A stretch of DNA of 64,000 nucleotides from a virus (Duplodnaviria > Caudoviricetes). The notes under the pieces are model-generated. The model ran no database searches and had not been told where the DNA came from. It saw nothing but the letters and a program-made list of their open reading frames with translations. Location of the stretch: IMG/VR virus record IMGVR_UViG_3300037067_012588. One strand, written 5' to 3'. Shown one piece after another: positions 9,983 through 62,340 of this stretch. The position numbers and the translations under genes are program-made. Positions within the stretch are counted from its first letter, which is position 1, and the number at the start of each line of letters is the position of its first letter.

Positions 9983-9993
9983 GTTCTATTCCC

Positions 9994-10680
9994 CTAAACC
10001 TTATACGGGTATATGATTTGAATCGTGTCGCCCTCAACGATATTCCCAGTCAAAGGAACAGTGGGCTGACCATAATTCTGAAAAACTATACGCTTGATTG
10101 TTGAAGAAAGCTGAACTTGAAAATCAGGATACGTTCCCCAAACATTCAACATGTTGTCCGCATTCAACTGCTCAATACCACCAAGAACATTGACACGAAC
10201 GAGTTTCGCATCAAGTATTTCCGGAGAAAGAGTTGAGATATCTACAAATCCTTGAGACATATCATCCGTAGTAATCGTGTGAGGAAGAACGTTTTCACGA
10301 ACACCTCCAAGATTCTCATCGATAATTTCACGATTTGTCTCATCATACAAAGCACGAAACTGATCAGGAACAGTCGCCGTACCAACACGAGCAAGCTTCC
10401 AGTTTGGAGTAGGAGTAAAGACAACCCCTCGCCCTTCCTCTGGTGACTTCAGAGTCTTCCTCAAATCCTCAACAATGAGAACGTAATTCTGTGACGAATA
10501 CTTTGCAGCAATGCTAAAAACACTCTGTTCATTGTATTCTGAATCACTGATAATATCCCCAACAGAAATCTCATCCGAAGTCGCCTCATCCAAATAGATA
10601 TTGATTTGCGACAAGAGATTTCCCCTTGGCGACATGGCAACCTTGGCTTTTGGAGATAGATAACAATTTGCCGTCACCAT
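9994..10680 (-). CDS. Hypothetical structural protein
   Basis: 228-aa ORF packed tightly in the operon; no family recognised. Confidence 0.7.
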   Translation of the reverse strand: MVTANCYLSPKAKVAMSPRGNLLSQINIYLDEATSDEISVGDIISDSEYNEQSVFSIAAKYSSQNYVLIVEDLRKTLKSPEEGRGVVFTPTPNWKLARVGTATVPDQFRALYDETNREIIDENLGGVRENVLPHTITTDDMSQGFVDISTLSPEILDAKLVRVNVLGGIEQLNADNMLNVWGTYPDFQVQLSSTIKRIVFQNYGQPTVPLTGNIVEGDTIQIIYPYKV

Positions 10681-10683
10681 ATT

Positions 10684-11994: not shown

Positions 11995-12010
11995 AAGAAC
12001 CCCCCACGAC

Positions 12011-14836: not shown

Positions 14837-14914
14837 TGGAGATTCTCCGTTTCAACGACCATCAGAACCGACAGAGTCCACCAACGGCTCCCTATCATCC
14901 TGCGACAATCAGCT

Positions 14915-17068: not shown

Positions 17069-17115
17069 GTTACTCCTCCATCATAGTGTCCAAAAAGGAA
17101 AACCAATTATACATC

Positions 17116-17688
17116 TCAAGTGCGGGTATCGGTAAATTCTGCAAACCAAGTTCTCTTCTCCTCATCAGTCATGGTTGTTGAATCATACACATCCATGATG
17201 CTTGCTCGAAGAGCAACCCCAGAATCAAGACGACCCTTAACCGTTACCGCATACGCAACAATGAATCCATTAAACGCAGACTCATCCGTAAGAACATATC
17301 CAAGCTCCGATGCCGTCGAAACCGTTTGTGGAAATGTCAGCATCCCAGACACCTTCAACAACTGCATTCTTGTCCAATTTCCCTGCGCTGCATCCGAAAG
17401 ACTGAACAACGTTGAATTGTATGTAAAGCCAAGATAAATCAACGTCCTCGTCTTCATATCGACATTGAATATCAAACGGTTTTTTATCGACACAAGATCT
17501 TCAACAAAAGGTGTCGGAGGAACAGGTGGAACATATGGAATCTCTATTGGAGAATTCCCCAAAGAAATCCACTCAAGATACAAATCCTGATTTTGATCAA
17601 CAACTTGTTCTCTTCCATCTGGATACACATAGACAATTTCAAAGTTTCCCTCTGCGTCTGTGTAAACCTTGTTATAGCTTCCATCCAT
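17116..17688 (-). CDS. Tail-fibre assembly-like protein (DUF4376-like)
   Basis: 190 aa directly downstream of a fibre gene; GFTYNSTLFSLSDAAQGNW resembles DUF4376 proteins. Confidence 0.55.
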   Translation of the reverse strand: MDGSYNKVYTDAEGNFEIVYVYPDGREQVVDQNQDLYLEWISLGNSPIEIPYVPPVPPTPFVEDLVSIKNRLIFNVDMKTRTLIYLGFTYNSTLFSLSDAAQGNWTRMQLLKVSGMLTFPQTVSTASELGYVLTDESAFNGFIVAYAVTVKGRLDSGVALRASIMDVYDSTTMTDEEKRTWFAEFTDTRT

Positions 17689-17690
17689 GA

Positions 17691-22424
<4,734 letters not shown>

Positions 22425-22449: not shown

Positions 22450-25400
22450 TTAAAACAGAAGAGTGACTCGACAATTCAAACCTGATCCTGTTCCCGTGAT
22501 AGATGGAGCCAAATCAAGAATCATTTCTGGACCAGGAACACCTCCAGCCGTTGTTGCCGATGACATGACAACTGTTGACGGATAACGATAACGCCATGTT
22601 GTCGCCGTTGCCTGACCACAGAAGATAACTCCACGACATGGCTTACCCATCGTATGGGTAATTGTGATGGCTGTCGTGCTTGGTGTACCAGCCACATACG
22701 TCCAATCCGCAGGGAAATCTACAGGAGGTGTTGCTCCAGGATTTGTTCCTGAGAATGCAACGGTGAACGTCACATCCTTCAAGTTCGTATCACCAATAAG
22801 AACAACACCAGTTGTTGAACTCGTTGCCACCAAAATCTGTTTGGCAAAGTTCTGTGGCTCAGTCGCAACAAGAGCACCAGCCGATGTATCAGACAACCAA
22901 TACAAACCTCCAGCCGTCAATCCTGTCAAACCTGAAATCTTTCCACGATAAACAATCGTGAAATCATCACCTGCAACATTCGAAACAATACCAACAGCCC
23001 TTGAACCAATCAAAGCCGTCGGTCCACCAGAACTTGCAGCGGCTGCAAGAGCCTTCACCCATGCTGTTCCGTCATAACGAATAACATCCCCAACAACTAA
23101 TCCATGACCAGATTGAGTTATTGTCTCTGCAATCGTCTCACCACTTCCACTACCCCCAGAAGGACCTGTTGCACCCATTGGACCAGTAGCGCCCGTCTCG
23201 CCTGCTCCTGTAGCTCCTGTCTCACCAGCAGTACCTTCTGGCCCAGTAGCACCAGTAGCCCCATCTTCACCAGCAGGACCAGTCAAGCCCTGAATGCCTT
23301 GAATGCCTTGTGGGCCAGTCAAACCCTGTTCACCCTGCGGACCAGTCGCACCAGTAGCACCATCTGTACCATCTGCGCCATTTGCACCAACAGGCCCAGT
23401 AGCCCCTGTCTCGCCTGCTCCAGTTGCACCAATAGGACCAGTCAAGCCCTGAATACCCTGTGGCCCAGTGGCCCCAGTCTCGCCTGCCCCTGTAGCCCCA
23501 ATAGGACCAGTGGCCCCTGTTGCACCAATTGCACCATCTGTCCCTGCAGGCCCAGTAGCACCTGTTTCACCTGCACCAGCAGGACCAGTTGCTCCTGTCG
23601 CACCATCAACACCCGCAACTCCATCTGCACCAGTAGCACCATCTGCACCCGCAGGCCCAGTCGGACCAGTTGCACCAACAGAAGGACGAGCCGCCAAAGC
23701 TTCGATTGCCGTTTGGACTGTCTTCGGAGTTCCTGCCAGCAAAGCGATGGTGTTATCAAACCCAACACCCTTCGCAATGGTCAGATAATTAGGAACCATG
23801 TTCCCAACAACCGTTCTTCCTGCATAAAGAAGCTGTGACATTGTTTCAGCATCAGCATAAACGTTTGTATTTCCAGAACCTGTTCCAATATTGATAATCG
23901 CTGATGTTGGAATCGCACAGTTCGTCAAACCAGAATAACTTGACCCATCAACCGATACGGCTGAGAATGTAATAGAACCAGTTGCTGTTCCACCAGCGGT
24001 CCTATCAAATCCACCCTGAATACGACTTGAATCAATTTCAAAAATAGTCGCAGTCGGTCCAATGATTGACTTCATTTGACAACTGTGAGCCTTAATACCA
24101 AAAGTGTCTCCAGACAAACCACCCATATATCCATTCTCAATCGCAGAAGCATTTGCTTCAATAACAAGAGCACTTGTCGTTCCAGAAGCTTGCGGCAAAT
24201 CCTTCGTCTTTGTCATACCATTGCGAATGTTTGCATGGTCGATTGTGATATAACTGTTTCCAACACGAACCTGCCACTGCTCTGTTGGAGCTGAGTTGAA
24301 ATGTTGATTTACAGCACCCATGATGATAATACTATCTGCTGAAAACGCTGCTTCAACACCAGAACCTTCACCAATAATATCGAGAGTTGGAGAAGCATGA
24401 TTTGCTCCATCCGACCACGGACGTGCTAGAAATGCGTGCATCGGATAACTTGGATGAACTTTGAAATCATCACCGTAAGGCAAATCAGCCGTATCAAAAA
24501 TCCAGCGAACATTACCCATAATCCGAACACCCGTTCCAAGAAGAGCAACACGGGCTCGACGAATGTTAATCAAAACATCATTCGGTTCAGTTTCTGTTCC
24601 TTCTTCCGTATATACACCAGGAGCAAGATCGAGAACAATCTTCTCAGCACTCCATGTGTAAATACCTTCTTCTGTCGAAGGAGCAACAGGAATAGAAAGC
24701 ATAGCAGCGTTGATGTTCTTGAATGGCTTCGACAATGTTCCATCAGCCGTCGCATCATCACCAATTGTCGAATTGACATGAATCGTACTATCCGAAACAA
24801 CCGAACGATTCTTCAAAGACTCAAGAGCATCCTGAACATTGTTCGGACTTCCTGGCAACTGAGCTATCGTGTTGTCGAAGAAAGAATCCTTCGCAGTCAA
24901 CGGACCCTTGGGTTTTCCTCCAACCCAAAGTCCACTCATATCACCCAACTTGATGAACAACGGCGCACTAACACCGTTAATCGGATCATCTGTACTCATT
25001 TCTCCAGCAACGGTTGACGACAGATAAACATATGATCCAACATCACCAACAGGCATCGGAATAGAAAGAATTGGGGCAATCGGACGCATTCTGAATCGGT
25101 CTGGACCAGGAACTGTCGTTTCTGTCACGATGCCAACAACCCTACCATTCCCAATCGTATCAGCCTGAGCCTTTACATAGCCAGAAGACGTAATACCAAT
25201 TGCATCTCCAACAGAAAAACCATGTGCTACTTGGTCAACATAAACTTCATTGATTGCTTCTGATTTGAAAAACCGACAAACAACCTCACTGACAAATGTC
25301 AGAGCCATCGAAGCAGGAAGAGAAGGCAATGGGAAGATAACAGGAAGTCCATCTTTCATCTCAAAAAGGATGCCTGATCCTTCAGTAATAAATCCACTTC

Positions 25401-25752
25401 CCTGTCCAACTTGATCGTCAGCTTGGAAGGTATTCTCTCGATTGTAATCTTCAAGATCGAGTGTGAATGGTGAATATGGATCGGAAATCTCCCCTATCGC
25501 TGCAACCTTAAGAAACCTACCAAAGGCCATTGTTGTCAGAATATCACCAACCTTGATGTCGAGAGCGTTATAAACATACGGTTCTCTCGTCAAGTGACTA
25601 CTATGAAGCTGCGCCGAAACAGACGCAGTAACACGCCACTTGACAGGAAATCCAATCCATGGATCTCCTGTACCGTCATCGTTCGTCCAAGTCTCCACAA
25701 TCTCTGCGTTGGAAATTGTCAATTGAAGAATTTTTGCTGGAATATACGACAT
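22450..25752 (-). CDS. Collagen-like fibre protein, paralogue 3
   Basis: 1100 aa: shared N-terminal module, GATGP-rich collagen segment, a second internal copy of the HGxxVGD..KA..A..GIV..YxLS..G module, and a C-terminal module shared with 25831..27255. Confidence 0.85.
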
Positions 25753-25788
25753 GGCAAGCTCCTTTCAGAAGCATAGAATTCAAAGGAA

Positions 25789-25816
25789 CTCGGAGGGTCA
25801 GTTTTGACCCTCCGAG
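25789..25816 (-). terminator. Putative intrinsic terminator or intergenic hairpin
   Basis: Perfect 12-bp stem CTCGGAGGGTCA-GTTT-TGACCCTCCGAG, followed on the minus strand by TTCCTTT. Confidence 0.6.
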
Positions 25817-25830
25817 CAGAGCCATAACAC

Positions 25831-27255
25831 TTAGAACTGAACCAAGACCTTACAGATATTTCCCGAACCTGTTCCCGTGACCGAAGGAGCAACATCAACA
25901 GTGAATGATGTCGTGCTGATAACACCAGCAGAATCAGGAACGAAAGAAATTGCAACCGTTGTAGGAACACGAACATACCAACGGCCATTGGTAACACTCT
26001 GACCAAGGAAACTCACAAACTTCGGATGAGTTCCCATCGTGTGAGTGAATGTAACAGAAGTCGAACTCGGCGTACCAACCGAATATCCCCAACCAGCAGG
26101 AAGATCAACAGGAGGTGTTGCGCCAGGAACAGCACCAGCAAACTGCACAGAAATTTCCGTAACACCACTTCCACCGCCACCAGAAGGACCTGTTGCACCC
26201 ATTGGCCCAGTTGCACCCGTTTCACCAGCACCTGTGGCCCCAACAGGCCCAGTCGCACCAGAAGATCCAGCCGTACCAGCAGGACCAGTTGCACCATCTG
26301 CCCCAACAGGACCAGTTGCACCAGTAACTCCTGCTCCTGTGGCTCCAACAGGCCCAGTAGCACCTGTAGCACCATCTGCGCCATTTGCGCCAACAGGCCC
26401 AGTGGCCCCTGTTTCACCTGCCCCAGTTGCACCAATAGGACCAGTCAATCCCTGAATGCCCTGTGGCCCAGTAGCACCCGTTTCACCCGCACCTGTAGCC
26501 CCAATCGGTCCAGTCAAACCTTGAATACCCTGTGGCCCAGTTGCTCCTGTTTCACCCGCACCAGCAGGACCAGTAATACCTTGTTCACCCTGAATACCCT
26601 GCGGCCCAGTGGCTCCTGTTTCACCAGCACCTGTAGCCCCAATAGGCCCAGTCGCTCCCATCGCCCCATCTGCACCATTTGCACCTACAGGACCAGTTGC
26701 GCCAGTTTCACCTGCCCCTGTAGCCCCAATAGGCCCAGTGGCCCCTGTCGCACCAATAGCGCCATCTGCGCCCGCAGGCCCAGTAGCACCTGTAACACCT
26801 GCACCAGCAGGACCAGTTTCACCAATAGGGCCAGTAAAACCTTGAGCTCCATTTGTTCCAGACGGCCCAGTAAAACCTTGAATACCCTGAATACCGACAG
26901 GTCCCGTAACACCTGTTGCGCCATTTGTTCCAGCAGGCCCAGTCATACCCTGCGGACCAGTCGGCCCTGTCGCACCATCTCCACCTTCGCCACCCGTTCC
27001 TGTGTCACCAACTTCATTCTCGGAAATTGTTCCTACGAGCGTGCAAAGCTGCTTCCACGAACCCGCACGGAAGTCACCAAGAACTGAACGACCATTCACT
27101 ACGAGACGCTGAGAATTCTCAGACTCGTAAATGAAATGTCCAGCCTGAACACGAGCGATTTTTTCAAAATCAGCCTCTGGCTTCAGATAATTGATGATGT
27201 CCGACATCATAAACGCTTTGTTCGCTTGCCATTTCAACATGAGATATTCCTCCAT
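25831..27255 (-). CDS. Collagen-like protein (GAT/GET-rich)
   Basis: 474 aa with about 270 aa of Gly-X-Y; C-terminal [13 protein letters not shown]...THTMG is paralogous to 22450..25752. Confidence 0.85.
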
Positions 27256-27300: not shown

Positions 27301-29301
27301 TTACCTTCCACGAAAAACCGTTTGCTTCAAAATACTCTCAGGACCACTCAACTGCGGAACCTGCGAATAATTCTCATCTTTCAAATAGTCCAATATCGCC
27401 TCATGGGCTTTCATCCAATCAATATTTTTGTCCTTGTCAATCGTCACTTTCAGAGCAGCAGTCATTGCACCATTGTATTGTCCACCAATAAAAGCATCAG
27501 CAGATGTCTGATTGTCACGGCAACCAGAAAGAAGAAGATGACGTGTTTTGAAAAAAGCGATATTGGAAGCCGACCTTGGACCAAACAAATCCTTCCAACC
27601 AACACGATTCACTGGAAGATTTCTGTTCCTCGAACGCACAGCAATATCAAAAGGAGGTTTCAAATAACGAACCTTCACGGGATGTGGATTACCAATAGGC
27701 ATCGCACGATCCATACTTCCAGAATGACAGTTATGAACAAAAACTCCAGAAGACAAGGCAAAATTGTGAAACTCATCAACAGTTAAATCATAAACAACCT
27801 CTGTTCGACCAGTATCTTCAACTCTGACAACCTTATGATTATTTGGACAACAAAACTCACAATCCTCTTTAACCAATCCACGTTTTTCATGCCAACGAAC
27901 ATGGTTTGTTTTTCTTGTTTTCAAGACACCTTCTGGACTTGAAGCATATTCTTTTGAACTTGCAGACATTTTTTCACGCAACTCTTGATTCTCCCAGTTT
28001 GCCTTCGAAACATTCCTTGACCTCTCTCTTCCTTCTTCAGACTTATTCATCTCTATAAAACGTTTTGAATTTTCAGAATTATCACGATTCTGAGCAGCCT
28101 CCACATGAATACGGCGATATTCCTCGTCTTTCCAACACTCACGAACCAATTCAGATTGAAGCCTGCAATACTCTTCGCTAGACCTCCATGCACGATAATC
28201 AGGATCACTCCAAACCTTTTTGAAATTCTTCCTGCCAACCTCTCCATGAATACGCTTGTGGTCGTACCACGTCATCATTTTGAGGTTTTCTGGACGATTA
28301 TCCCTCTTATTGAAGTTCGAATGATGACAAACACTCTTTCCTTCAGACATATCCATCCCAACAGCATCTCTCATAGCAATATGGGTAGGACACCAACGAC
28401 GTTTCCCATTTTCTTGGTTTGTTGTTTGAACAAACTCATATCCCTTCAAATAACTACTATCAGTGCTACGCCACTCCCGACGATATAATGGCATCAAAGA
28501 ATCACCCTCTACCAAATCTCCTGCCTCAACAAAAGACCCATCCCTCATCATAAAACGATGATCATCAGTACATTCAACAGACTCTCCATTATCAAGAACA
28601 ACCCGAATAAGCTTTCTTGTGCCAGTTATTCTTGCTGAGTGAGCACGACCAGGAACAACACGACCATCCTCCAAAGAAGAATAAACCCAATATTCTCCGC
28701 CATCCTTCTCCATCTCAGCAATCGTTTTTTCTGTTCCATCAAGTAACGGAATTTTCGTCGCTCCTGCAAGACATGCGTCGCACAGAAATGTCAAAAAAGC
28801 ACCTTCTGGAATACGACGGAAAAATCCTGCCAAAATCTTGTCCGTCAACGGATTATCCCAATCCATGTCGGTCGGACAAAGAATCTGACATTCCTCGTTC
28901 TCAAGAGTATCTTCGTTCCGACAACGAATAGATGAACCATGACCCGAATATTGAAACACCAACTGCGAACCAGGTTGTGCTGATGAAATCAACCACTCAA
29001 GACGCTCAAGAATGTTCTGCTGTGTTGCACGCTCATCACAAAGAACACGGATGTTGTCCTCTTCAAATCCATAATTCTTTGTCAGTCTGTCATAAATGTC
29101 GTTAACGTCATTTACACAACCATTTAAGTCAGAACCACTCAAAGCAACATACTTGTTAATCCCAACCAATACGGCAAAATTTTGAGGCATAATGCTTTCC
29201 TCCGTCGAAGAAACAACGACAACAGGAGCCGCTGTCACAGACTCCTGCGAAGACTTGAATATAGAAAGAATGAAGTTAAGAATGACTTTGAAAACTCCCA
29301 T
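27301..29301 (-). CDS. Caspase-family (peptidase C14, metacaspase/orthocaspase-like) protease containing an intein
   Basis: AVLVGINKY, LNGCVNDV, YSGHG (catalytic His), DA|CHSG (catalytic Cys after splicing), LSGCRDNQTSAD, GAMT. Start set at ATG 29301 (AAGGAG RBS); the ORF track begins at 29355. Confidence 0.9.
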   Translation of the reverse strand: MGVFKVILNFILSIFKSSQESVTAAPVVVVSSTEESIMPQNFAVLVGINKYVALSGSDLNGCVNDVNDIYDRLTKNYGFEEDNIRVLCDERATQQNILERLEWLISSAQPGSQLVFQYSGHGSSIRCRNEDTLENEECQILCPTDMDWDNPLTDKILAGFFRRIPEGAFLTFLCDACLAGATKIPLLDGTEKTIAEMEKDGGEYWVYSSLEDGRVVPGRAHSARITGTRKLIRVVLDNGESVECTDDHRFMMRDGSFVEAGDLVEGDSLMPLYRREWRSTDSSYLKGYEFVQTTNQENGKRRWCPTHIAMRDAVGMDMSEGKSVCHHSNFNKRDNRPENLKMMTWYDHKRIHGEVGRKNFKKVWSDPDYRAWRSSEEYCRLQSELVRECWKDEEYRRIHVEAAQNRDNSENSKRFIEMNKSEEGRERSRNVSKANWENQELREKMSASSKEYASSPEGVLKTRKTNHVRWHEKRGLVKEDCEFCCPNNHKVVRVEDTGRTEVVYDLTVDEFHNFALSSGVFVHNCHSGSMDRAMPIGNPHPVKVRYLKPPFDIAVRSRNRNLPVNRVGWKDLFGPRSASNIAFFKTRHLLLSGCRDNQTSADAFIGGQYNGAMTAALKVTIDKDKNIDWMKAHEAILDYLKDENYSQVPQLSGPESILKQTVFRGR
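27730..28773 (-). mobile_element. Intein (348 aa) with HNH homing endonuclease
   Basis: Starts CLAGATKIPLLDG; block B CTDDHRF; HNH motif VCHHSNFNKRDNRPENL; ends VYDLTVDEFHNFALSSGVFVHN followed by Cys(+1). Confidence 0.92.
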
Positions 29302-29369
29302 TTGTGTTCTCCTTGAAAAAGAGTACTCACAATAGAGAGTTATTAAAAAAAACATAAATCCGAGGGGGG

Positions 29370-43337: not shown

Positions 43338-43375
43338 TTCACAAAAGAACATCGTCCAGAAGGAGAATTTCTGGA
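43338..43375 (-). promoter_or_regulatory. Repeated intergenic promoter/operator-like motif, copy 1
   Basis: Plus strand TTCACAAAAGAACATCGTCCAGAAGGAGAATTTCTGGA; contains a TCCAGAA-7-TTCTGGA dyad. Confidence 0.7.
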
Positions 43376-49385: not shown

Positions 49386-49423
49386 TTCACAAAAGAACAT
49401 CGTCCAAAGGAGAAATTTTTGGA
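49386..49423 (-). promoter_or_regulatory. Repeated promoter/operator-like motif, copy 2
   Basis: TTCACAAAAGAACATCGTCCAAAGGAGAAATTTTTGGA. Confidence 0.7.
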
Positions 49424-51060: not shown

Positions 51061-51098
51061 TTCACGAAAGAACATCGTCCAGAATGAAAAAATCTTGA
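51061..51098 (-). promoter_or_regulatory. Repeated promoter/operator-like motif, copy 3
   Basis: TTCACGAAAGAACATCGTCCAGAATGAAAAAATCTTGA. Confidence 0.7.
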
Positions 51099-52545: not shown

Positions 52546-52585
52546 CTCACAAAAGAACATCGTCCAGCAAGGAGAAAATTTATGA
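52546..52585 (-). promoter_or_regulatory. Repeated promoter/operator-like motif, copy 4
   Basis: CTCACAAAAGAACATCGTCCAGCAAGGAGAAAATTTATGA. Confidence 0.65.
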
Positions 52586-53684: not shown

Positions 53685-53722
53685 TTCACAGAAGAACATC
53701 GTCCAAAGAAGAAAATTCTGGA
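53685..53722 (-). promoter_or_regulatory. Repeated promoter/operator-like motif, copy 5
   Basis: TTCACAGAAGAACATCGTCCAAAGAAGAAAATTCTGGA. Confidence 0.7.
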
Positions 53723-53731
53723 AAGATTTTT

Positions 53732-54469
53732 CTACAAACAACCAGAAAACATCTGATCTACCTCTTTGTCCATCTTTTCAACAGGATATACCTGAAGAGC
53801 CATTTTGGGCAATCGTCTAACGAAGAAAATAGCCATATTCGCATCCAGTGCGCCCCTGAAATAACCTTCCTCATGAAGCAGACGCCGATAGATGTTCAAC
53901 TGAAGGCTGTAATGGTTGAAATTGCAGTCATCCAGATGCTTCAGGAATCCGTTCCCACACTGGTATGTGTTCCCGAATTTGATTTCCTTGTTCGTCTTCC
54001 AGTCAAACACACATAGACGACCCTGCTTGTCCTTGAACAGCAGGTCTATAGTTCCTGCAAGCCGATACCTCGGGCTAAAGATAATCTTCTCAGATGCAAT
54101 GAAGCGATAGTTCTTCAAGAGGTCGTTGTCAATGAAATCCCCAACCGTCTTGAAACTTTTCTCATCTTGCTCATCGGAAGGATCAGGCAACGGATTCCCG
54201 AGCAGTTTTGCTTCGGCGAACTCATGAACCCTTGTTCCATATTCCGAGCCTTTGTTCTTTTTGTCTTCCCAATCCTTTTTGACATCTTCAACATTCAGGT
54301 TTCTTTTCGCAGCATATTTCTTTGCGACCCCTTCTGTATCGAACTCTGGAAAATGGTTGTGTATGAACCCAGTGACCGATGTGTAAACAACGCCCTGAGT
54401 GTCAATATACTTGTGGTCTTCCTCGGTGAAGGTGATAACCTCCCCCGATGGATGCTCAGCTTGTTTCAT
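53732..54469 (-). CDS. PD-(D/E)XK (RecB/Cas4-like fold) nuclease without an Fe-S cysteine motif
   Basis: H.Y...SVT...GTRVH...E...SE..I....LAGTIDLL...DWKTNK...YSLQL.IY; 3 nt separate it from the cas3 stop. Confidence 0.85.
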   Translation of the reverse strand: MKQAEHPSGEVITFTEEDHKYIDTQGVVYTSVTGFIHNHFPEFDTEGVAKKYAAKRNLNVEDVKKDWEDKKNKGSEYGTRVHEFAEAKLLGNPLPDPSDEQDEKSFKTVGDFIDNDLLKNYRFIASEKIIFSPRYRLAGTIDLLFKDKQGRLCVFDWKTNKEIKFGNTYQCGNGFLKHLDDCNFNHYSLQLNIYRRLLHEEGYFRGALDANMAIFFVRRLPKMALQVYPVEKMDKEVDQMFSGCL

Positions 54470-54472
54470 TTA

Positions 54473-56695
54473 TCAGCTCCTCGGAAAAACAATATCGTTG
54501 ATGCCAAGCTCGTTGTTGTAAGGACCATCCCAATACAAAACGTCCGACACAGACTTTATATGTTTGATTTTTTCATTGCTATTGCTAATATTGACTCCAA
54601 CTTGATACATCTCGATTTTCTTCATGAATTTCCTATCAGGTTTTATTCCGCTCTGTAGCTGACCGATATACTTCTTTCCAGCGCCATACGGAACCAAGAC
54701 CTGAGAAGACTCCTCATCAACAACACGATACAAATCGCCAACCTTTTCGTAATCGTAGGTTTCGATAAATTTGGATATTTCAGGAGACTTGTCTTGGCAT
54801 AGGTCGACCTGAGTAAGAAACATCGAAAAGAACTTCTCCAGAAAAACTGGGTCATACACATCGATATTCCAATTGTAAGAATTGAGCAACGTCAAAGTCG
54901 CATTAAGCTCCAAAAGCAGAGTCCCTGAGAAAATTTTAATACCATCATCAGGAATAACAACAAACATCCTTCCAAAAGAAAGGAACCCATGTCTGTTCGC
55001 TCGACCAAGCGCCTGAACCAACGATCTTAACGAACCAAAAAAACGAAAGACAGTTGGGAAATCCAAATCAACTCCGGCCTCAACAAGCGAGGTTGAAAAA
55101 ACCAAACACCTCTGATTGGTTTTCAATCTCAGTCGTATCTCTTCCAGTATCTTTTCCTGATGCTTTTTTGCAAGAAACGTGTTAAGCAGGAACAAACCAT
55201 CAGTCGTCCCAGTCTTCTCAAGCATCTTCAAATACATCTCGTATGACTCACACCTTGTGTTTGTTATGCACAAGGTTTGCTCTTTAGACTCACATTTCAG
55301 GATTTTCTCACAGATTTCTTCATACGAGAGTGTATCGGAAACTGATTTCGGAAAAATCACATTGGCACGACGAATCTCTGGCGCTGAAAAAACCTCCCTA
55401 AACCTCGGGTCAACATAAGAACAGCTCACATACCGACTGTAATCGGGCAATGTTGCCGATGACAACAGGTAGGACGTATTGAATATCCTCTGCCACGCAC
55501 TCAACGTTTCAAATGTAACATTCAAAAGATTAGCAGGAATATCTTGAGACTCATCGAAAACAACAACAGAGTTCGCAAAATTATGAAGCTTCCTAAACCG
55601 ACCACCATGCCTCGCATGAAGGCTGTCAAGACACTGAGCCATTGTTGTCACAATAATCGGAGCTTCCCAGTTTTCTCGCAACTGCTTTGAGCGAATAAGC
55701 TCTGTTTCTTTTTCCTCGGGGTTTGAGTAAACCTCGAAATCAATCCCTGAGTGGTCTTCAAGCAAAGCAACGTTGTCACCAAAAGCGTTCCTAATCTCAT
55801 TGGCCGTTTGAATCGCAATCTTAATAAACGGAACAACAATTATCACCCTGTTCTTCTTGTGAGTCTCGGCATGGCGCAACGCCCATCCAAGTTGAGCCAT
55901 AGTCTTACCAACACCTGTCGGATACGGCATCAGATGAAAACCAACAGGAGAACTTCCAGCAGCAACAGACCTCTCGAAAACAATGTTTCTGAGGTCGGTC
56001 ACGGGACTGTTGGCAAACAAAACGCTCTTGGATTTGCGATAGCTATCCAAGAGACAAAAAAGCTTACCCCAATCTGGACGCTCATACATCATCCTCGACG
56101 CAGCAGCCTTCGGGTCAAAAAACATCTCGGTATCAAGACAATCAGCATCAACCAAACAACTTGATATATAACGAATGATAGCACTCATGTCGTGACAGTT
56201 TGTCGGCATAAGCAACTGTTCTTCTTGAGCTTCACGAATGTAATCAAGAAGATTCGGCTCAATAGCGCAAGCCTCCTTAAAACAATCCTCCCAATGACAA
56301 GACATTATATCGTTCGTTCTGAGATGGGCAACTTTGTAAAAATCATTAACCCAAGTATTTCCTGAATAAAACCCTCGATGATGCGCAGCTATTGGGTAAA
56401 ACACCTGCTCTTTGAGATTATTATTCATAGCCGCAAACAAACCCTGAGATTGATGTGCGAAAGAATATGTATCGGTATTGTAAATGAAATCAGAACGACG
56501 ACCGACTTGGTATCTCAGAGACAACTTTCCGAAATCATGTCCTCCACCAACACAACAACACGTTCCTCGCATGGGTATATTTGGTTTATCTCTGAGAAGA
56601 AATCGCAACATTCTTGCAATCACTCCACGAGTATGAGCCAACCAAGATTGATGTTTGCCGTCATGTTCTGAAAAATGACCTATCGGTGTTGTCAT
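54473..56695 (-). CDS. cas3: CRISPR-associated helicase/nuclease Cas3 (N-terminal HD domain)
   Basis: LAH, HDFGK, H, AHH, LVDAD HD motifs; PTGVGKT, DESQ, SAT, STSLVEAGVDLDF, Q..GR.NR.G helicase motifs. Confidence 0.93.
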   Translation of the reverse strand: MTTPIGHFSEHDGKHQSWLAHTRGVIARMLRFLLRDKPNIPMRGTCCCVGGGHDFGKLSLRYQVGRRSDFIYNTDTYSFAHQSQGLFAAMNNNLKEQVFYPIAAHHRGFYSGNTWVNDFYKVAHLRTNDIMSCHWEDCFKEACAIEPNLLDYIREAQEEQLLMPTNCHDMSAIIRYISSCLVDADCLDTEMFFDPKAAASRMMYERPDWGKLFCLLDSYRKSKSVLFANSPVTDLRNIVFERSVAAGSSPVGFHLMPYPTGVGKTMAQLGWALRHAETHKKNRVIIVVPFIKIAIQTANEIRNAFGDNVALLEDHSGIDFEVYSNPEEKETELIRSKQLRENWEAPIIVTTMAQCLDSLHARHGGRFRKLHNFANSVVVFDESQDIPANLLNVTFETLSAWQRIFNTSYLLSSATLPDYSRYVSCSYVDPRFREVFSAPEIRRANVIFPKSVSDTLSYEEICEKILKCESKEQTLCITNTRCESYEMYLKMLEKTGTTDGLFLLNTFLAKKHQEKILEEIRLRLKTNQRCLVFSTSLVEAGVDLDFPTVFRFFGSLRSLVQALGRANRHGFLSFGRMFVVIPDDGIKIFSGTLLLELNATLTLLNSYNWNIDVYDPVFLEKFFSMFLTQVDLCQDKSPEISKFIETYDYEKVGDLYRVVDEESSQVLVPYGAGKKYIGQLQSGIKPDRKFMKKIEMYQVGVNISNSNEKIKHIKSVSDVLYWDGPYNNELGINDIVFPRS

Positions 56696-56744
56696 AAAAT
56701 CTCCTTTTGCCGATAAAAGTCGCCACAGTATTTTTTATGCGAAG

Positions 56745-58130
56745 ATTTCAATATACCAGTGGATTTTCATCCACTGGAACAATGCATTCTCGTGAATCTT
56801 TGCCCGTTTTGTCAGTTTCAATATACCAGTAGACTTTCATCCACTGGAACAACATCGTCCGAGAAGCATTTTTTTGACCATAATTCTTTCAATATACCAG
56901 TGGACTTTCATCCACTGGAACAAGAAGCTGCGGACATACTACGGGCAACGTCATGTGCATTTCAATATACCAGTGGACTTTCGTCCACTGGAACCCTTGC
57001 GGCGACCATCCAAAGCATCAAAAGTACCCATATTTCAATATACCAGTGGACTTTCGTCCACTGGAACGGGCTGGTTTTTTGCCGTTTGAAACAAGACACC
57101 AATTTCAATATACCTGTGGACTTTCGTCCACAGGAACATGAGCGAAGCATCATTGAGGTTTCGTCCGCTATTTCAATATACCAGTGGACTTTCGTCCACT
57201 GGAACCGCCGTACCCCCACTTTATAGATAACCTCGCCTGTTATTTCAATATACCAGTGGACTTTCGTCCACTGGAACGTATGCCCTTGCACTTGAGGGCG
57301 TGCCCTTCAACAGATTTCAATATACCAGTGGACTTTCGTCCACTGGAACCTCGGCAAGATATAAGTCAGTCTGTGCCTGTGCCGCTTATTTCAATATACC
57401 AGTGGACTTTCGTCCACTGGAACGTCCATAGGTAGAGCCCAAAGAAAGGAGCCCTGCAATATTTCAATATACCAGTGGACTTTCATCCACTGGAACTGCC
57501 GTTAGCCAAATACTGGCGGCAGGACAGACATTTCAATATACCAATGGACTTTCGTCCACTGGAACCAACATGATGCTTTCTGTGTGTTCGACCGCACAGC
57601 CATTTCAATATACCAGTGGACTTTCGTCCACTGGAACACAACCAAATCACCTGTTGCAACATCAAACTTATTATTTCAATATACCAGTGGACTTTCGTCC
57701 ACTGGAACAAAGGACCGTAAAAACCTGTCCGATACTATGCCGATTTCAATATACCAGTGGACTTTCGTCCACTGGAACAGGGCGGGCGTGTCCTGTCCGA
57801 TGAAGGCTTATTTCAATATACCAGTGGACTTTCGTCCACTGGAACTTTGCACTATCCCATGATTCATGGTAGAATCAGGACAATTTCAATATACCAGTGG
57901 ACTTTCGTCCACTGGAACGTTTTTGAGAATAGCCTCCCAGTGTTTTTTCGCCAATTTCAATATACCAGTGGACTTTCGTCCACTGGAACTCGCATGGGCT
58001 ATGGGGCATACAGGGCGTACAGGGATTTCAATATACCAGTGGACTTTCGTCCACTGGAACTACAGCCCCCAATACCTTCGGCAATCACTCAGATATTTCA
58101 ATATACCAGTGGACTTTCGTCCACTGGAAC
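56745..58130 (-). CRISPR. CRISPR array: 20 repeats of 36 bp, 19 spacers of 31-38 bp
   Basis: Repeat on the minus strand is GTTCCAGTGGACGAAAGTCCACTGGTATATTGAAAT. Degenerate repeats cluster at the 56745 end (trailer), so the leader is at the 58130 end. Confidence 0.98.
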
Positions 58131-58365
58131 CTTACCGCTCTCAAATCACTACATATCAAACACTTACATAGCCACTTGCGAGCGCCTCATCAAAAAGACG
58201 AGGAATCACAAAATTTGTCATCGTTCGATTGTCAAAGAACTCTTCAAACCTATACACACCAAACACTTACAACTTTGCGAGCGCCTCAAACCCACAAAAT
58301 TCAGCACAACCATATAGCATCAAATCAGTTATGTTGAAATTTGTCTGGTTTCTCACAGACACCAA
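58131..58365 (-). promoter_or_regulatory. CRISPR leader with an IHF-like site and a duplicated motif
   Basis: TATCAAACACTTA (58154-58166) fits the IHF consensus WATCAANNNNTTR; TTGCGAGCGCCTCA occurs at 58176-58189 and 58275-58288. Confidence 0.75.
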
Positions 58366-59298
58366 TCAGTCTCTCGCAAGAGAATCCAACATGCACCACT
58401 CGATACCACGAGCCTTACAAAAGGCGTCAATGGTCTCGTGAGAGGTAAATTCAAAATCATCACGACTCTTCGGAAACTCCCCAGACTCTACCAAAGACGC
58501 ATTCAGTTTCGGAAAAAGCAATTTCTTGATGTTGTGAATCTCAGCAAAACGACCCTTTTGAGAATGCTGAAAGACGTACACAGAAATAAGCCTTGACTCA
58601 CCAAGAGCCTTTGAACGTTCCCCCTCGTAAGCCATCCTGAGTGATTCGAAGAAGATGTTCAAATCATCGTCTGAGACACCATTATCAACACCAACCAACG
58701 GTGCATAGTCACCAACGCCAAGATAAACGGCATAAGGAACAAAACAGGTCTTTGCCCACGAATTTATCTTGCCATCAGACCTCGAAGGACCAGTATTGCT
58801 GATACGCTCAATCTCGATTGGATGGCAAGACTTGAAGTCAGTCATCTGAACACTTCCACGAAAAGCCGCACCATTGTTGCAAGTCGTTGCGCCAAAAACC
58901 CTCGACTCCCAGAAATCAGCAAGAAACCTCTTGCGATCAGCAATGATAACGTTCTTCTCATCATCTGTCTTTTTCGGCTTCTTCGGCTTCTTCGTCTTCC
59001 CATCGCCAGCATCAACACCCTCAACAACAGCCGCATCGCTATCTTTTGCAGAACCACCGAGATTGTACATCTTGAACGTATCGTTGAGGTTTGTCCCACG
59101 GTGAGTGAAGCCAACCATCCCATGAGAGTTTTCAGCACAATCACGAATCTTGCGCTTCACGGATACACCACAAACAGACCCAAACCCATCTGAGGTCATC
59201 CTCGGCGCACCTTCGTTGTCAGGGTCCCCGTTCAAGTTCCCATTTACAGCCTCAAGAACAAACGCAAAATCGATGTACTTTTTTGAATCATACTTCAT
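58366..59298 (-). CDS. cas7: Type I-C-like Cas7 (Csd2/Csh2 family)
   Basis: NGNLNGDPDNEGAPR, VSVKRKIRD, W.SRVFGA, GSVQ, VPYAVY. Confidence 0.9.
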   Translation of the reverse strand: MKYDSKKYIDFAFVLEAVNGNLNGDPDNEGAPRMTSDGFGSVCGVSVKRKIRDCAENSHGMVGFTHRGTNLNDTFKMYNLGGSAKDSDAAVVEGVDAGDGKTKKPKKPKKTDDEKNVIIADRKRFLADFWESRVFGATTCNNGAAFRGSVQMTDFKSCHPIEIERISNTGPSRSDGKINSWAKTCFVPYAVYLGVGDYAPLVGVDNGVSDDDLNIFFESLRMAYEGERSKALGESRLISVYVFQHSQKGRFAEIHNIKKLLFPKLNASLVESGEFPKSRDDFEFTSHETIDAFCKARGIEWCMLDSLARD

Positions 59299-59360
59299 TG
59301 GAAAACTCCTTCATTGAAAAAAACATTCAGAAAAACATCACACAATTCACTTTTTTGAAT

Positions 59361-59888
59361 TCACTCCGACTCTTCGCCATCGTCCTCATCGTCATCGATA
59401 TCATCATCGATGTCATCGTCATTCTCAACAATCGCAGCCACACCAGCCGCAGCATCCTCAGCCGCCTTCTTCTTCTTGTACTCTTCGATATTCTTGTAGT
59501 ACACTTCGATAAAGCTCTTCTTCTCAGAAGCATACCCGAAGTGAAAACTCAACTCCTGAGCAGGTGTAAAACGAACAGGAAAATCACTCGGATTTCCGAA
59601 CTCTGACATGATCTCCAAATACCTTTTCTCGGTTGCATTCGTATACTCACCATTGGAAATGTAATACGTGAGCGTACTGAGATTCGTGGCAAAGAATCTC
59701 CTTGGGCTTGTTGTTGCGCTGAAAATCTTCGTACCCTCGAAATCTGTTGTAGCTGTCACTTTCTGTGTTTTCGATTTTTCCTTGTTAACGTTGTCAGTCT
59801 CACGCCTTGCATTCACAAGCAAGAAGAACAACCGACCAATATCACTCGCCGCCTTGCAACCATCATCAACAATCACACCGTTCGACAT
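59361..59888 (-). CDS. cas11: Putative Cas11c small subunit from an internal in-frame start in cas8c
   Basis: In-frame ATG at 59888 preceded by GGGAAAGGG, just before the GRLF motif; matches the known internal translation of Cas11 in type I-C. Confidence 0.55.
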   Translation of the reverse strand: MSNGVIVDDGCKAASDIGRLFFLLVNARRETDNVNKEKSKTQKVTATTDFEGTKIFSATTSPRRFFATNLSTLTYYISNGEYTNATEKRYLEIMSEFGNPSDFPVRFTPAQELSFHFGYASEKKSFIEVYYKNIEEYKKKKAAEDAAAGVAAIVENDDDIDDDIDDDEDDGEESE

Positions 59889-61373
59889 CGCAAACCCTTT
59901 CCCAACAAATAACCTCGACAAAACAAGACGCATGGCAACCATCGCAGAAGGACGAGTAACAGCACAAGACCTACGACGGTTTTTCAACAAGCCATCAACA
60001 AGAAATCTTGGAATCGGTAATACTTTGACATTGCCTTGAGAATCAAGCGGAGCAGAATTCAACATAAAGCTGAGAAATTGTTGAATGTGAGCCTTCAAAG
60101 GTGGCTCAGTTTTCTTCCCACCTTCATCTTCTTTTGCTTTTGCCTTCCTGTAGGTTCGCTCAACCTTACCAGAATCGTCAACTTCTTCATCCCAAATTCC
60201 AACGAAAAGCTCATCCATGAGATATTTCATGACAGGAATTTTTTTAAGTTCCGAGATCAAAAAGTTTTCACCAAGGTCGTTGTAAATCATTCGCAGCGAG
60301 CGAACGAGGTCACTCACAACAACGTCATCAACCGACACACAAACTCTCGTGCTTGCCCCTCCAATAGAAACCATTGCAACGGAGCACGTTTCAGGCGCAA
60401 TCGTATCCATCGTGGAATTCGGACTCTGGATGGACAAAAACCTCGAAAGATTTATCGCTGGGTCAAGAGACTTGAAATAGCCCCACACGTCATCATCGCA
60501 CCTGATAAGCATCATGTCGCCGTTTGGAAGTTTCACTCGACGATTTTTGTTTGAAAGGAGATCGTAGAACGACTGCTTTATCTTGTCTGAACAAGTCACA
60601 CAGATTGAAGAACTCTGCATTTTTTTGAACCCATGAAACCATGTAGAGTTGTCGCTGAACGAAGCAATGGAAGTTCCCGTCGATTTTGCACCGGAAAGGA
60701 ATTTGCTTGCCTTCAAGATTGGAAGCTTCCTGACAAATTGCCCCTCTTTCCCGCAACAAGGGCAGAAGCCAAAAACAATTTTGGCGTTCTTCCCAGAGCC
60801 AACAACCAAAGCATCCTTGCGGTTCTCCCTGAAAAACACACTCCAAAACTTTATGAAGTCTGGGTCGTGAACGAGCGGAAGTCCATTTGCATCATCGACA
60901 GACAACGCAACACGAATGGAATCTTTTTCCTTGTTTGTTATTTCAAGAATCTTTTTCTTCCACTCATCGTCAAGCGGCTGAGCGACAACATTTGCCGCCG
61001 ATAAAATTTTATCGGCAAGAACGTCGTACCCAGCACCTCTTGCGTGCCCAGCGAGCTCTCGATACAGATTAGGGTAAGACTTCGAACCCGGAGTCCAATT
61101 TGAAAACAAACGAGTCATGTCATCACAAAAAAACTGAGTCGACGAAAGCCCTTTTTCTCTCGATAACTCCAAGAATCGAGGAGCACGAAGGCTTGGACGT
61201 TTTTTGTGAGCCCCTTTACGAGTTTCTTCACGAGTCTGAATGTCAAGAACTCCAACAATCTTGTTGTTTTCGATGAGAATTGTCGCATAGACAAGCTCTT
61301 CATCAAAAGCGACATAATCGAAATTTGGCTTCGGGTTCTTGTCGAAGCTCTCAACCAACCATTTTAACGACAA
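59361..61373 (-). CDS. cas8c: Type I-C large subunit Cas8c (Csd1), divergent, with acidic tail
   Basis: R..G....FFCD, HD..F..FW, CPCCG....R..P..K....GA.S.G.SI.SF, GRLF, FP..F....Q..F.FGY; located between cas5 and cas7. Confidence 0.8.
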   Translation of the reverse strand: MSLKWLVESFDKNPKPNFDYVAFDEELVYATILIENNKIVGVLDIQTREETRKGAHKKRPSLRAPRFLELSREKGLSSTQFFCDDMTRLFSNWTPGSKSYPNLYRELAGHARGAGYDVLADKILSAANVVAQPLDDEWKKKILEITNKEKDSIRVALSVDDANGLPLVHDPDFIKFWSVFFRENRKDALVVGSGKNAKIVFGFCPCCGKEGQFVRKLPILKASKFLSGAKSTGTSIASFSDNSTWFHGFKKMQSSSICVTCSDKIKQSFYDLLSNKNRRVKLPNGDMMLIRCDDDVWGYFKSLDPAINLSRFLSIQSPNSTMDTIAPETCSVAMVSIGGASTRVCVSVDDVVVSDLVRSLRMIYNDLGENFLISELKKIPVMKYLMDELFVGIWDEEVDDSGKVERTYRKAKAKEDEGGKKTEPPLKAHIQQFLSFMLNSAPLDSQGNVKVLPIPRFLVDGLLKNRRRSCAVTRPSAMVAMRLVLSRLFVGKGFAMSNGVIVDDGCKAASDIGRLFFLLVNARRETDNVNKEKSKTQKVTATTDFEGTKIFSATTSPRRFFATNLSTLTYYISNGEYTNATEKRYLEIMSEFGNPSDFPVRFTPAQELSFHFGYASEKKSFIEVYYKNIEEYKKKKAAEDAAAGVAAIVENDDDIDDDIDDDEDDGEESE

Positions 61374-62002
61374 AGCGACACCTCCTTCTTTGCACCTTCG
61401 TAATCAATCCATCCATCGACCATTTTCGCATCAAAATAAACAGGCGGAATCGAAGGGCGAAGTCTGTCTATTCCGTAATACAACCAACCAAGATCGAGCG
61501 TTTGTCCACCCGTCAACTCCCGAGCCTCATCCAACTCAAGAACCCGAAAGAACGCACCGTAATCCGAACATCCAAAACAAGGCATTCCTTTTTCTGCTGT
61601 CCCTGTTTTTGCGTTCTCCATGAACATGGCAAAGTATTTGTCTACCGTACAATCCGCACGCCTTGACTCGTCAATGTTTTCCTCAATCAACTCGATTCTG
61701 GAAATAGTGACAAAATCTGGGTGCATCAACAACCTCTTGCACCTTTGTTGTGGCTGGATGTGCGAAATTTCCTTGAACTCGTTGTTCTTCACAGACGAGT
61801 AAACGAATGGATGCCGAATGAAAACATCCTCAACAACAAAACGAAACTGAGGCTTTGTGTGTATCTTGTAGTGCATACCCTCAACTGCAGACGCCGAGGG
61901 TACGCATTGCGATGATGGGTCAGAATCCGTCATCGGAATCGTCCACAAAGCAAAGTCACCCCAAAAATGCATCGCCACACGCCTTGCGCTGTCTCTCTTC
62001 AT
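61364..62002 (-). CDS. cas5: Type I-C Cas5 (Cas5c/Cas5d), divergent
   Basis: WGDFALWT.P, P..SA..G....I..KP, NE, QQR, P.FGC..Y, DLGW...ID, P..F.A.M.DG.I. Confidence 0.85.
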   Translation of the reverse strand: MKRDSARRVAMHFWGDFALWTIPMTDSDPSSQCVPSASAVEGMHYKIHTKPQFRFVVEDVFIRHPFVYSSVKNNEFKEISHIQPQQRCKRLLMHPDFVTISRIELIEENIDESRRADCTVDKYFAMFMENAKTGTAEKGMPCFGCSDYGAFFRVLELDEARELTGGQTLDLGWLYYGIDRLRPSIPPVYFDAKMVDGWIDYEGAKKEVSLCR

Positions 62003-62340
62003 AGTCAACTCTCTTTCTTACACCTTGATTTTTCCAAAATGAACAATGTTTTTGCCTTTGGTGTATTTTTATACGAAGCAAGGAAGCCTTTTTTTTTGAC
62101 GAATTTCTGTTTTCTTCAAAAATATGCGAAAAACCTTCCACTCTAATCGTGCTCCCCTTGCAAGACTTCCTCGCCTCTATCCTAAATGGGGCTGCCGATG
62201 ACTTCCGCTGACAGATTTCTTCGTTTATTTTGTTAATTTCTTCATTCTTGCCTTCAGGCTCTTTATCGCCTCTATTCTTAAAGGAGTTCTTGTTGGTTCA
62301 AACTGACAGAAATCTTCGTTTTTTTCAAAATCTTCCTGAT

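Follow-up and report, generated by a model that had tools for sequence, protein, structure and literature searches.

Type I-C CRISPR-Cas systems canonically carry their genes in the order cas3-cas5-cas8c-cas7-cas4-cas1-cas2, followed by the array. Their Cas11 subunit is made by internal translation within cas8c, with no separate cas11 gene, and their canonical protospacer-adjacent motif (PAM) is 5'-TTC; compact Cascade-Cas3 systems already serve as a genome-engineering tool. Phage CRISPR systems without adaptation genes are already known, so that their existence is not what is new here: in passages of the survey of huge phages by Al-Shayeb et al. (2020; PMC7162821), almost all CRISPR systems of these phages are described as lacking Cas1, Cas2, and Cas4, and a "type I-C variant" is described in which Cas5 is Cas5d-like, Cas6 is missing, and a helicase takes the place of Cas3. 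Jumbo phages generally lack Cas1, Cas2, and Cas4 in their CRISPR systems, according to a 2024 review (PMC11656645). Here, we analyze a 64-kb stretch of the IMG/VR virus record IMGVR_UViG_3300037067_012588 (Caudoviricetes), hereafter the window, which is part of a 344,634-bp parent contig; results based on the window cover those 64 kb. It holds, all on the minus strand, cas5c, cas8c, cas7, a leader, a CRISPR array, a short gap, cas3, and a gene for a PD-(D/E)XK exonuclease, and we regard it as quite likely that this row represents a functional, phage-borne, interference-only derivative of type I-C.

Results

Interference genes related to type I-C

The initial annotation of the window had described cas5, cas8c, cas7, a leader, an array, cas3, and a nuclease gene in this order on one strand and had read them as an interference module resembling type I-C, its array lying within the gene row. 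Every part was found at its position on the minus strand (Table 1), the 19 spacers are indeed all different and exactly 49 nt separate the final repeat from the cas3 ATG, and the reading as such a module is borne out by family and structure matches and by the gene map.

Cas5 matches PF09704 (Cas_Cas5d; E = 8e-8) and TIGR01876 (the I-C Cas5c family; E = 2.8e-12) and aligns over its full length with the solved Cas5c proteins of Desulfovibrio vulgaris (8dex; E = 9e-20) and X. oryzae (3vzi; E = 1e-15), with a His where D. vulgaris Cas5c has the His of an I-H-W-K-P stretch. In Bacillus halodurans Cas5d, the catalytic triad is formed by Y46, K116, and H117 (PMC5965381); the alignment of the window Cas5 with that chain covers residues 10-70 only and falls short of mapping the triad. 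Cas7 matches PF05107 (E = 5e-36; 125 bits, cut-off 33.2), and its best NCBIfam match is TIGR02589, the I-C Csd2 family (E = 2.5e-29, versus 1.4e-8 for the I-B family Csh2). Cas8c matches PF09709 (Cas_Csd1) at 49.9 bits, against a cut-off of 27, over residues 33-287 (i.e., in its N-terminal part only), and the NCBIfam equivalog TIGR01863 at 35.8 bits, far below its cut-off of 218.65. The in-frame Met496 of the window Cas8c aligns with Met484 of the Cas8c of a relative described below, and a purine-rich sequence resembling a Shine-Dalgarno site precedes both; Met496 is a candidate internal translation start for Cas11, as would fit the I-C pattern.

Cas3 matches TIGR01587 (cas3_core) at 122.9 bits, over its cut-off, and TIGR01596 (cas3_HD) at E = 2.3e-8, under its cut-off. 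A profile built from two Cas3 sequences matches the solved Cas3 structures 8g9u and 8zns at E ~1e-77, and 8g9u was deposited with a Cas5 chain that likewise matches the window Cas5. The motifs of the HD domain (H21, H53-D54-x-G-K, H81, H105-H106, and D183/D185) are invariant between the window Cas3 and two relatives that are ~40-41% identical to it, as are motifs I, III, and VI of the helicase part; in all, three lineage members keep the catalytic motifs.

Compared with type I-C as a class, the window thus has the Cas8c (Csd1) signature, present as a distant match, a Cas5c as processing subunit without Cas6, a Csd2-type Cas7, a single-chain Cas3 with HD and SF2 helicase parts that is related to I-C Cas3, and a repeat predicted to form a hairpin with an 11-nt 3' tail. 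The cas4-cas1-cas2 genes of a I-C locus are missing from the 64 kb, and in place of cas3-cas5-cas8c-cas7 with an array at the end, the order is cas5-cas8c-cas7-array-cas3. Judged by its sequences, the system is a distant member of type I-C.

Array, repeat, and leader

The repeat (e.g., at 58095-58130 on the minus strand) is made up of 3 nt, a 9-bp stem closed by a GAAA loop, and an 11-nt tail, with a predicted folding energy of -17.1 kcal/mol (z = -6.1); it has no match among the CRISPR-DR families of Rfam. The repeat at 57102-57137 carries a compensatory pair of changes in the stem, A to T and T to A. The three repeats nearest cas3 are variants, and the terminal one regains a perfect stem via a C:G to U:A change, its 11-nt tail being unaltered. 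Because the variants cluster toward cas3 and the repeat tail ends in ATTGAAAT on the minus strand, the leader is the region beside cas7, and the array is therefore read as being transcribed in the direction of the cas genes.

The leaders of the window and of the relative described below have AGGCGCTCGCAA, TCTTTGACAATCGAA, and AGGCGCTCG(C/A)AA in identical order, with unalignable DNA around them. A variant set of the same three blocks is found in a second leader of the relative, and within the window the blocks are restricted to the leader. They are candidates for the array promoter, with a -35-like TTGACA, and for protein-binding sites, and may act as such.

Every repeat of the window also holds TGGTATATT, which looks like an extended -10 element, 5 nt from the repeat end; the repeat of the relative has TGCTATTAT in this position. 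A promoter of this kind borne by the repeat (TGGTATATT) was considered as a source of cas3 transcripts and found to be without support, the promoter type of the host not being known.

A small lineage on phage-like contigs

Word-index searches with Cas8c and Cas7 returned the query alone, and among GenBank phages there was no DNA match, with Cas7 identities of just 25-27%. An exhaustive HMMER search of 1.84 billion representative proteins found two true relatives of Cas8c only, with 31% and 29% identity. One of these is encoded on IMGVR_UViG_3300029288_002061 (106 kb; 79% complete by CheckV), a contig that ends inside an array after cas5-cas8c-cas7; a 49.8-kb contig from the same metagenome (L007) begins within that array and continues with cas3, and a Logan contig (L003) bridges both. 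The proteins of this relative are 43% (Cas5), 29% (Cas8c), 40% (Cas7), and 40% (Cas3) identical to those of the window. Because the relative keeps cas5-cas8c-cas7-leader-array-cas3, this order is a conserved trait of the lineage. A third member is known from a 2.3-kb contig (L008), with a Cas3 that is 77% identical to that of the second member and a repeat upstream of it.

Directly past the relative's cas3 come a second leader and an array of 17 repeats (L007, 2678-4200). The repeats of this second array come in two stem variants in which compensatory changes keep the pairing, with the 5' end and the tail as in the first array; a "227-aa open reading frame (ORF)" called after cas3 is really this array and was rejected as a gene-caller artifact. 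Apart from the cas genes, no genes are detectably shared between the window and the three stretches of the relative that were fetched. No member of the lineage was found in 185,579 species genomes. As far as these sequences go, the lineage is small and has so far been seen on phage-like contigs only.

The next Cas3 proteins are bacterial and 27-33% identical to that of the window, and the nearest one examined outside the lineage (32% identity) belongs to a canonical locus, WYL-cas3-cas5-cas8c-cas7-cas4-cas1-cas2. We scanned 36 bacterial loci with the nearest Cas3 relatives and found four (L024, L033, L039, and L044) with a co-oriented array no more than a few hundred bases upstream of cas3. 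Three of the four (L024, L033, and L039) were confirmed as carrying the full cas3-cas5-cas8c-cas7-cas4-cas1-cas2 set and another array at its opposite end, and L033, from an Armatimonadetes metagenome-assembled genome (MAG; 6300-21584), reads array-cas3-cas5-cas8c-cas7-array (52 repeats)-cas4-cas1-cas2. In view of the arrays of these four loci, neither the array-cas3 junction nor an internal array is unique to the phage, and the position of the array just upstream of cas3, which the initial annotation had linked to a possible coupling, is also seen in ordinary bacterial I-C loci. The simplest origin of the phage order would be from bacterial two-array I-C loci, by loss of cas4-cas1-cas2 and rearrangement.

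Missing adaptation genes

The absence of cas1, cas2, and cas6 from the window, already noted from the bare sequence, is confirmed, and cas4 was not found there either. A tblastn search of the window with Cas1, Cas2, and Cas4 of the canonical I-C locus L009 gave noise only (best E = 0.35-0.7), and Pfam and PADLOC scans of 45 further window ORFs had no Cas1, Cas2, Cas4, or Cas6 among the matches listed. The 106-kb record of the relative likewise has no Cas1 and no Cas4. A Cas2-like match in the relative (18.8 bits, against a cut-off of 23.8) lies in a 277-aa frame overlapped by an ORF on the opposite strand, among the RecA, helicase, and PolA genes of a replication gene cluster, and was taken as noise.

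If spacers are still acquired, the Cas1-Cas2 needed for this must be encoded elsewhere, be it on the phage genome or in its host. The initial annotation had supposed that the Cas1-Cas2 of the host is borrowed, a proposal that found no support here. Arrays with the window repeat were found neither in the 185,579 species genomes nor in a metagenome collection, a weak negative given that the collection is without the window's own contig, and searches with the repeat gave no match in viral, metagenome, or genome contig collections.

A recurrent intergenic motif and spacer 18

The window contains a recurrent intergenic motif of ~40 nt, in which the core GGACGATGTT is followed by CTTTTGTGAA on the gene strand; on the plus strand, the core reads AACATCGTCC. 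This plus-strand 10-mer is present in six copies, versus 0.19 expected; five of them belong to minus-strand genes, whose ribosome-binding sites follow ~30-45 nt downstream on the gene strand (Table 1). The motif probably represents a phage-specific class of promoter and was not found in IMG/VR. Because it reaches the edge of the module, we take the module to be embedded in this genome and not to stem from a chimeric assembly.

Spacer 18 is similar to this intergenic motif of the phage itself: it is identical to one copy at 22 of 28 positions, with a local score of 15, versus 5-9 for the other spacers, and none of 2,000 shuffles reached 15. Its PAM-proximal end does not match the copies in the window. 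The resemblance suggests that the spacer was taken from a related phage with promoters of this family, and an exact copy elsewhere in this phage is possible.

Spacer searches gave no targets in GenBank phages or PLSDB plasmids. In IMG/VR, spacers 1 and 2 had no 24-mer match and spacer 18 had no 23-mer match, and the spacers have no self-match within the window and no cross-match with the loci of the relative. The initial annotation had seen the system as a weapon against competing elements or the host; spacer 18 gives the one hint of this kind, and the likeliest targets would be related competing phages or other mobile elements.

Transcription of cas3 and the 17-nt element

The initial annotation had proposed that the cas3 mRNA may be released as the 3' product when the pre-crRNA is processed. 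In this model, cas3 would have no promoter of its own, its mRNA would be what remains 3' of the cut made by Cas5c in the last repeat, and the supply of Cas3 would be tied to the maturation of CRISPR RNA (crRNA). In the 49 nt from the last repeat to the cas3 ATG, neither a terminator-like site nor a good sigma-70 promoter was found, in a scan that did overall no better than on shuffles, and the terminal repeat, with its perfect hairpin and 11-nt tail, should be cleavable. However, both relatives have a well-formed TTGACT-N17-TATATT promoter between array and cas3, together with a T-rich stretch and a degenerate repeat at the array end, and promoters of the same type stand before cas5 and several other genes. 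In the window, the gap begins with a 17-nt element, CTTCGCATAAAAAATAC, whose one other copy in the 64 kb lies on the same strand upstream of cas5. Moreover, bacterial I-C loci with a co-oriented array before cas3 exist, and we know of no such coupling between cas3 and crRNA for them. The proposal is weakened by these findings, and we now consider it rather unlikely.

The simplest reading of the 17-nt element is that of a promoter or operator that the cas3 and cas5 units would share. Most likely, cas3 forms a separate transcription unit with the exonuclease gene under the control of this element, to which read-through from the array may add. With such a separate promoter, the cas3 transcript would be expected to start a few bases past the CATAAAAAAT stretch. 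A terminator was considered past the first array of the relative and was rejected: its hairpin is the degenerate repeat, its T-run is part of the next promoter, and the third member does not consistently show a terminator-like form at this site. Farther upstream of cas5 in the window (62160-62320, minus strand), there are two direct copies of a ~45-nt unit (GAAGAWWTCTGTCAG ... ATAGAGGCGA), a possible regulatory site.

The initial annotation had also listed a nuclease at the end of the gene row. The gene is there, translationally coupled to cas3 and ahead of the next promoter-like motif, and its product has the D...DxK...QxxxY motifs of RecB/Cas4-type nucleases (PF12705; E = 7e-8), which would suit a working part of the system, either as a Cas4 substitute that trims prespacers or as a helper of Cas3. 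Against this, its best match is phrog_298, "exonuclease," a common phage family (E = 1e-29), it has neither a Cas4 family match nor the four-Cys pattern of an Fe-S cluster, and no homologue is found beside the cas3 of the relative, where the second array stands instead, or anywhere in the relative's 106-kb record. We therefore think it quite unlikely that the exonuclease is a working component; it is probably an exonuclease of phage recombination or replication that happens to share a transcript with cas3, and a role in the system is possible. A fold predicted for it without an alignment was not usable (mean pLDDT 37.6).

The 17-nt element also lends itself to an explanation by autoregulation of the CreR kind, in which an RNA made of the terminal repeat and the trailer behind it would pair with the site upstream of cas5, and Cascade would repress its own operon without cutting. 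Of positions 1-13 of the trailer, 12 match the cas5-upstream site; the window has no other non-self hit, and 0.03 hits per window would be expected by chance. The one mismatched position, 6, is left unpaired by type I complexes, and the handle of the terminal repeat is intact. Degenerate CRISPR units that repress cas promoters by partial complementarity are known for types I-B, I-E, and V-A, and I-C candidates have been noted (bioRxiv 10.1101/2023.03.10.532045). On the other hand, the target is flanked by TTG, not by the canonical I-C TTC, no second pseudo-repeat lies downstream of the trailer, and the similarity resumes after a 1-nt indel in an A-run, which fits a DNA duplication equally well. 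In addition, the trailers of the relative have no equivalent match in the available sequence, and a shared promoter explains the same data, so that regulation of this kind appears doubtful. Decidedly improbable, to our mind, is an extended form in which the terminal repeat and the 5' untranslated region of cas3 would be a crRNA-like regulator fused to the cas3 mRNA: after the cut of Cas5c in the last repeat, the RNA would begin with a perfect 11-nt handle, its following 13 nt would pair with the cas5 promoter region, and Cascade assembled on it would repress the operon. If this were true, the translation of Cas3 might be throttled as well, by Cas7 coating the ~36 nt ahead of its ribosome-binding site, and a self-balancing circuit would join the levels of Cascade, crRNA, and Cas3 in a phage weapon.

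Genomic setting of the module

One strand carries nearly all genes of the window, and composition is even across the module. PHROG matches identify collagen-type tail-fiber, exonuclease, ligase, and glycosyltransferase proteins of phage-type families; among the window genes are those for a NAD-dependent ligase, exonucleases, and a phage-family glycosyltransferase, and part of gyrA. The PHROG matches, the 344,634-bp length of the parent contig, the phage-specific intergenic motif at the module edge, and the fact that the relative is an IMG/VR record all agree with the phage-type flanks that the initial annotation had seen. The positions of the module and of the sequence elements discussed above are collected in Table 1.

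Table 1. Positions in the window of the module parts, the 17-nt element, the leader blocks, and the intergenic motif
Feature	Position	Strand	Description
cas5c	61364-62008	-	214 aa from TTG 62008; ATG alternative at 62002
cas8c	59361-61373	-	670 aa, large subunit
Candidate internal cas11 frame	59361-59888	-	Met496 to stop, 175 aa
cas7 (Csd2 family)	58366-59298	-	310 aa
Leader	58131-58365	-	235 nt, non-coding
Leader block AGGCGCTCGCAA	58275-58286 and 58176-58187	-	Common to the relative's leader
Leader block TCTTTGACAATCGAA	58224-58238	-	Common to the relative's leader
CRISPR array	56745-58130	-	20 repeats (36 nt each) and 19 spacers (31-38 nt), all different
Spacer 18	56851-56885	-	Shares GGACGATGTT and flanking similarity with the five intergenic copies
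Gap between array and cas3	56696-56744	-	49 nt, with AAAGGAG ribosome-binding site
17-nt element CTTCGCATAAAAAATAC	56728-56744	-	Begins directly where the last repeat ends; 32 nt ahead of the cas3 ATG
Second copy of the 17-nt element	62062-62078	-	54-70 nt upstream of the cas5 ATG
cas3	54473-56695	-	740 aa, HD nuclease and SF2 helicase in one chain
PD-(D/E)XK exonuclease	53732-54469	-	245 aa; start 3 nt past the cas3 stop
Motif core past the exonuclease	53695-53704	+	28 nt beyond the exonuclease stop; downstream edge of the unit
Motif core copies	43348-43357, 49396-49405, 51071-51080, 52556-52565, 53695-53704	+	Before five minus-strand genes

Several other genes of the window deserve mention in their own right. 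Two giant proteins are encoded at 1430-9982 (2850 aa, with FG-GAP, LamG, and BNR repeats) and at 17691-22424 (1577 aa, with long collagen triple-helix repeats), and more collagen-type tail-fiber proteins follow at 22450-27255. A 684-aa ORF at 27301-29355 has PHROG matches to HNH endonucleases, matches the intein region in the RecA of the relative over a short length, and is probably the member of the scanned ORF set with a match to Intein_splicing (2e-19); in the relative phage, RecA and a family A DNA polymerase carry inteins that contain LAGLIDADG homing endonuclease domains (L006, 4466-6790 and 10183-14040). A Pfam scan of the ORFs within ~29000-53000 found a caspase domain, ClpS, a radical SAM domain, Kelch propellers, a flavoprotein/DFP pair, and an M23 peptidase, and the same set includes an AAA ATPase with Gabija/Septu-like PADLOC matches; this accessory set is unusual for a phage. 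Beside the cas unit, a gyrA-like ORF at 62803-63999 matches the C-terminal part of GyrA only (model residues 419-793) and runs off the end of the window.

Discussion

From what is known of the family, the module would work as follows. The array would be transcribed on the minus strand from the conserved leader, and Cas5c would cut each repeat at the 3' base of the 9-bp hairpin, leaving the 11-nt tail of the repeat as the 5' handle, as expected for Cas5c processing (PMC5965381). On each crRNA, Cascade would form from Cas5c, Cas7, and Cas8c, probably together with a Cas11 translated from within cas8c; the complex would bind matching DNA beside a PAM and recruit the HD-helicase Cas3 for degradation of the DNA.

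Several observations weigh against a functional, phage-borne, interference-only I-C derivative with its own cas3 unit. The catalytic triad of Cas5c could not be mapped in the window Cas5, and Cas8c, Cas7, and Cas5 all score below the curated I-C cut-offs of NCBIfam. The motifs of Cas3, described as intact in the initial annotation, are conserved in the HD domain and in helicase motifs I, III, and VI, but motif II reads DESQ in the window and departs from DExH, versus DEAH in the relatives. The spacer searches found neither a protospacer nor a PAM. Cas1 and Cas2 may be encoded elsewhere in the phage, the search spanning 64 kb of the 344,634-bp parent contig. As to cas3, a convincing -35 box of the sigma-70 type is missing from both copies of the 17-nt element, and no terminator parts the array from cas3 in the window, which makes co-transcription possible. 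Finally, no capsid, portal, or terminase was verified in the window, and a Terminase_6N search of the relative was negative; together with the gyrA, ligA, ClpS, and caspase-like genes, which are also cellular, this would allow the contig to be a megaplasmid, a piece of a chromosome, or a chimeric assembly that holds an ordinary host system with its adaptation module missing, but we regard this as highly improbable given the phage families of the window, the single-strand gene bias and even composition across the module, the genome-specific motif that reaches the module and is echoed in spacer 18, and a relative that is an IMG/VR viral genome of a lineage absent from the 185,579 species genomes.

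As a functional phage-borne derivative, the locus would stand for a rare and so far phage-only offshoot of type I-C, with a large subunit nearly free of relatives, which widens the sequence space of compact Cascade-Cas3 systems. The cas7-leader-array-cas3 order and the three leader motifs are kept between phages that share nothing else that was compared, suggesting that the block moves or persists as one module. The leader motifs are candidate elements in this block, and the 17-nt element could serve to tell a shared promoter from crRNA-like autoregulation.

Comparison with known systems

The canonical I-C systems of Desulfovibrio vulgaris, Neisseria lactamica, and Bacillus halodurans have the same interference set as the window, namely a Cas5c without Cas6, Cas8c, a Csd2-type Cas7, and a fused HD-helicase Cas3; as in the window, there is no separate cas11 gene, and a hairpin in the repeat is followed by an 11-nt tail that ends in ATTGAAA plus one base. 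They differ in having cas4-cas1-cas2 and in placing cas3 first, whereas the window is without the former and has cas3 after the Cascade genes and the array. The sequences, too, are distant, lying far below the curated cut-offs, with two relatives of Cas8c in 1.84 billion proteins and with DESQ as motif II of Cas3.

The two-array I-C loci of the Thermomicrobiales (L024), Armatimonadetes (L033), and Alkalispirochaeta (L039) MAGs come close to the window in having a co-oriented array no more than a few hundred bases upstream of cas3, and L033 also in having an array after cas7. They keep cas4-cas1-cas2 and the order cas3-cas5-cas8c-cas7, and their Cas3 proteins are 27-31% identical to that of the window. 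The crRNA-like regulators of the CreR kind (bioRxiv 10.1101/2023.03.10.532045) resemble the junction between array and cas3 in combining a repeat with an intact handle and a match, in the window at 12 of 13 nt, to a site just upstream of the effector operon. They differ in having a pseudo-repeat downstream and a canonical flank, whereas the window has no such pseudo-repeat, a TTG flank, and possibly a duplicated promoter.

Among phage systems, the I-C variant of huge phages, as described in the passages of PMC7162821, shares with the window a probable huge-phage setting, a Cas5d-like Cas5, and the lack of Cas6, Cas1, Cas2, and Cas4. It has a helicase for Cas3, whereas the window Cas3 keeps the HD nuclease, a comparison by description and not by sequence, and the same passages do not mention an order with the array inside. 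The type I-F system of Vibrio phage ICP1 (Seed et al. 2013) is set apart from the window by its subtype, by an adaptation module of its own, and by known targets, but it is likewise a type I system encoded by a phage and used by that phage, as we propose for the module described here (PMC11656645).

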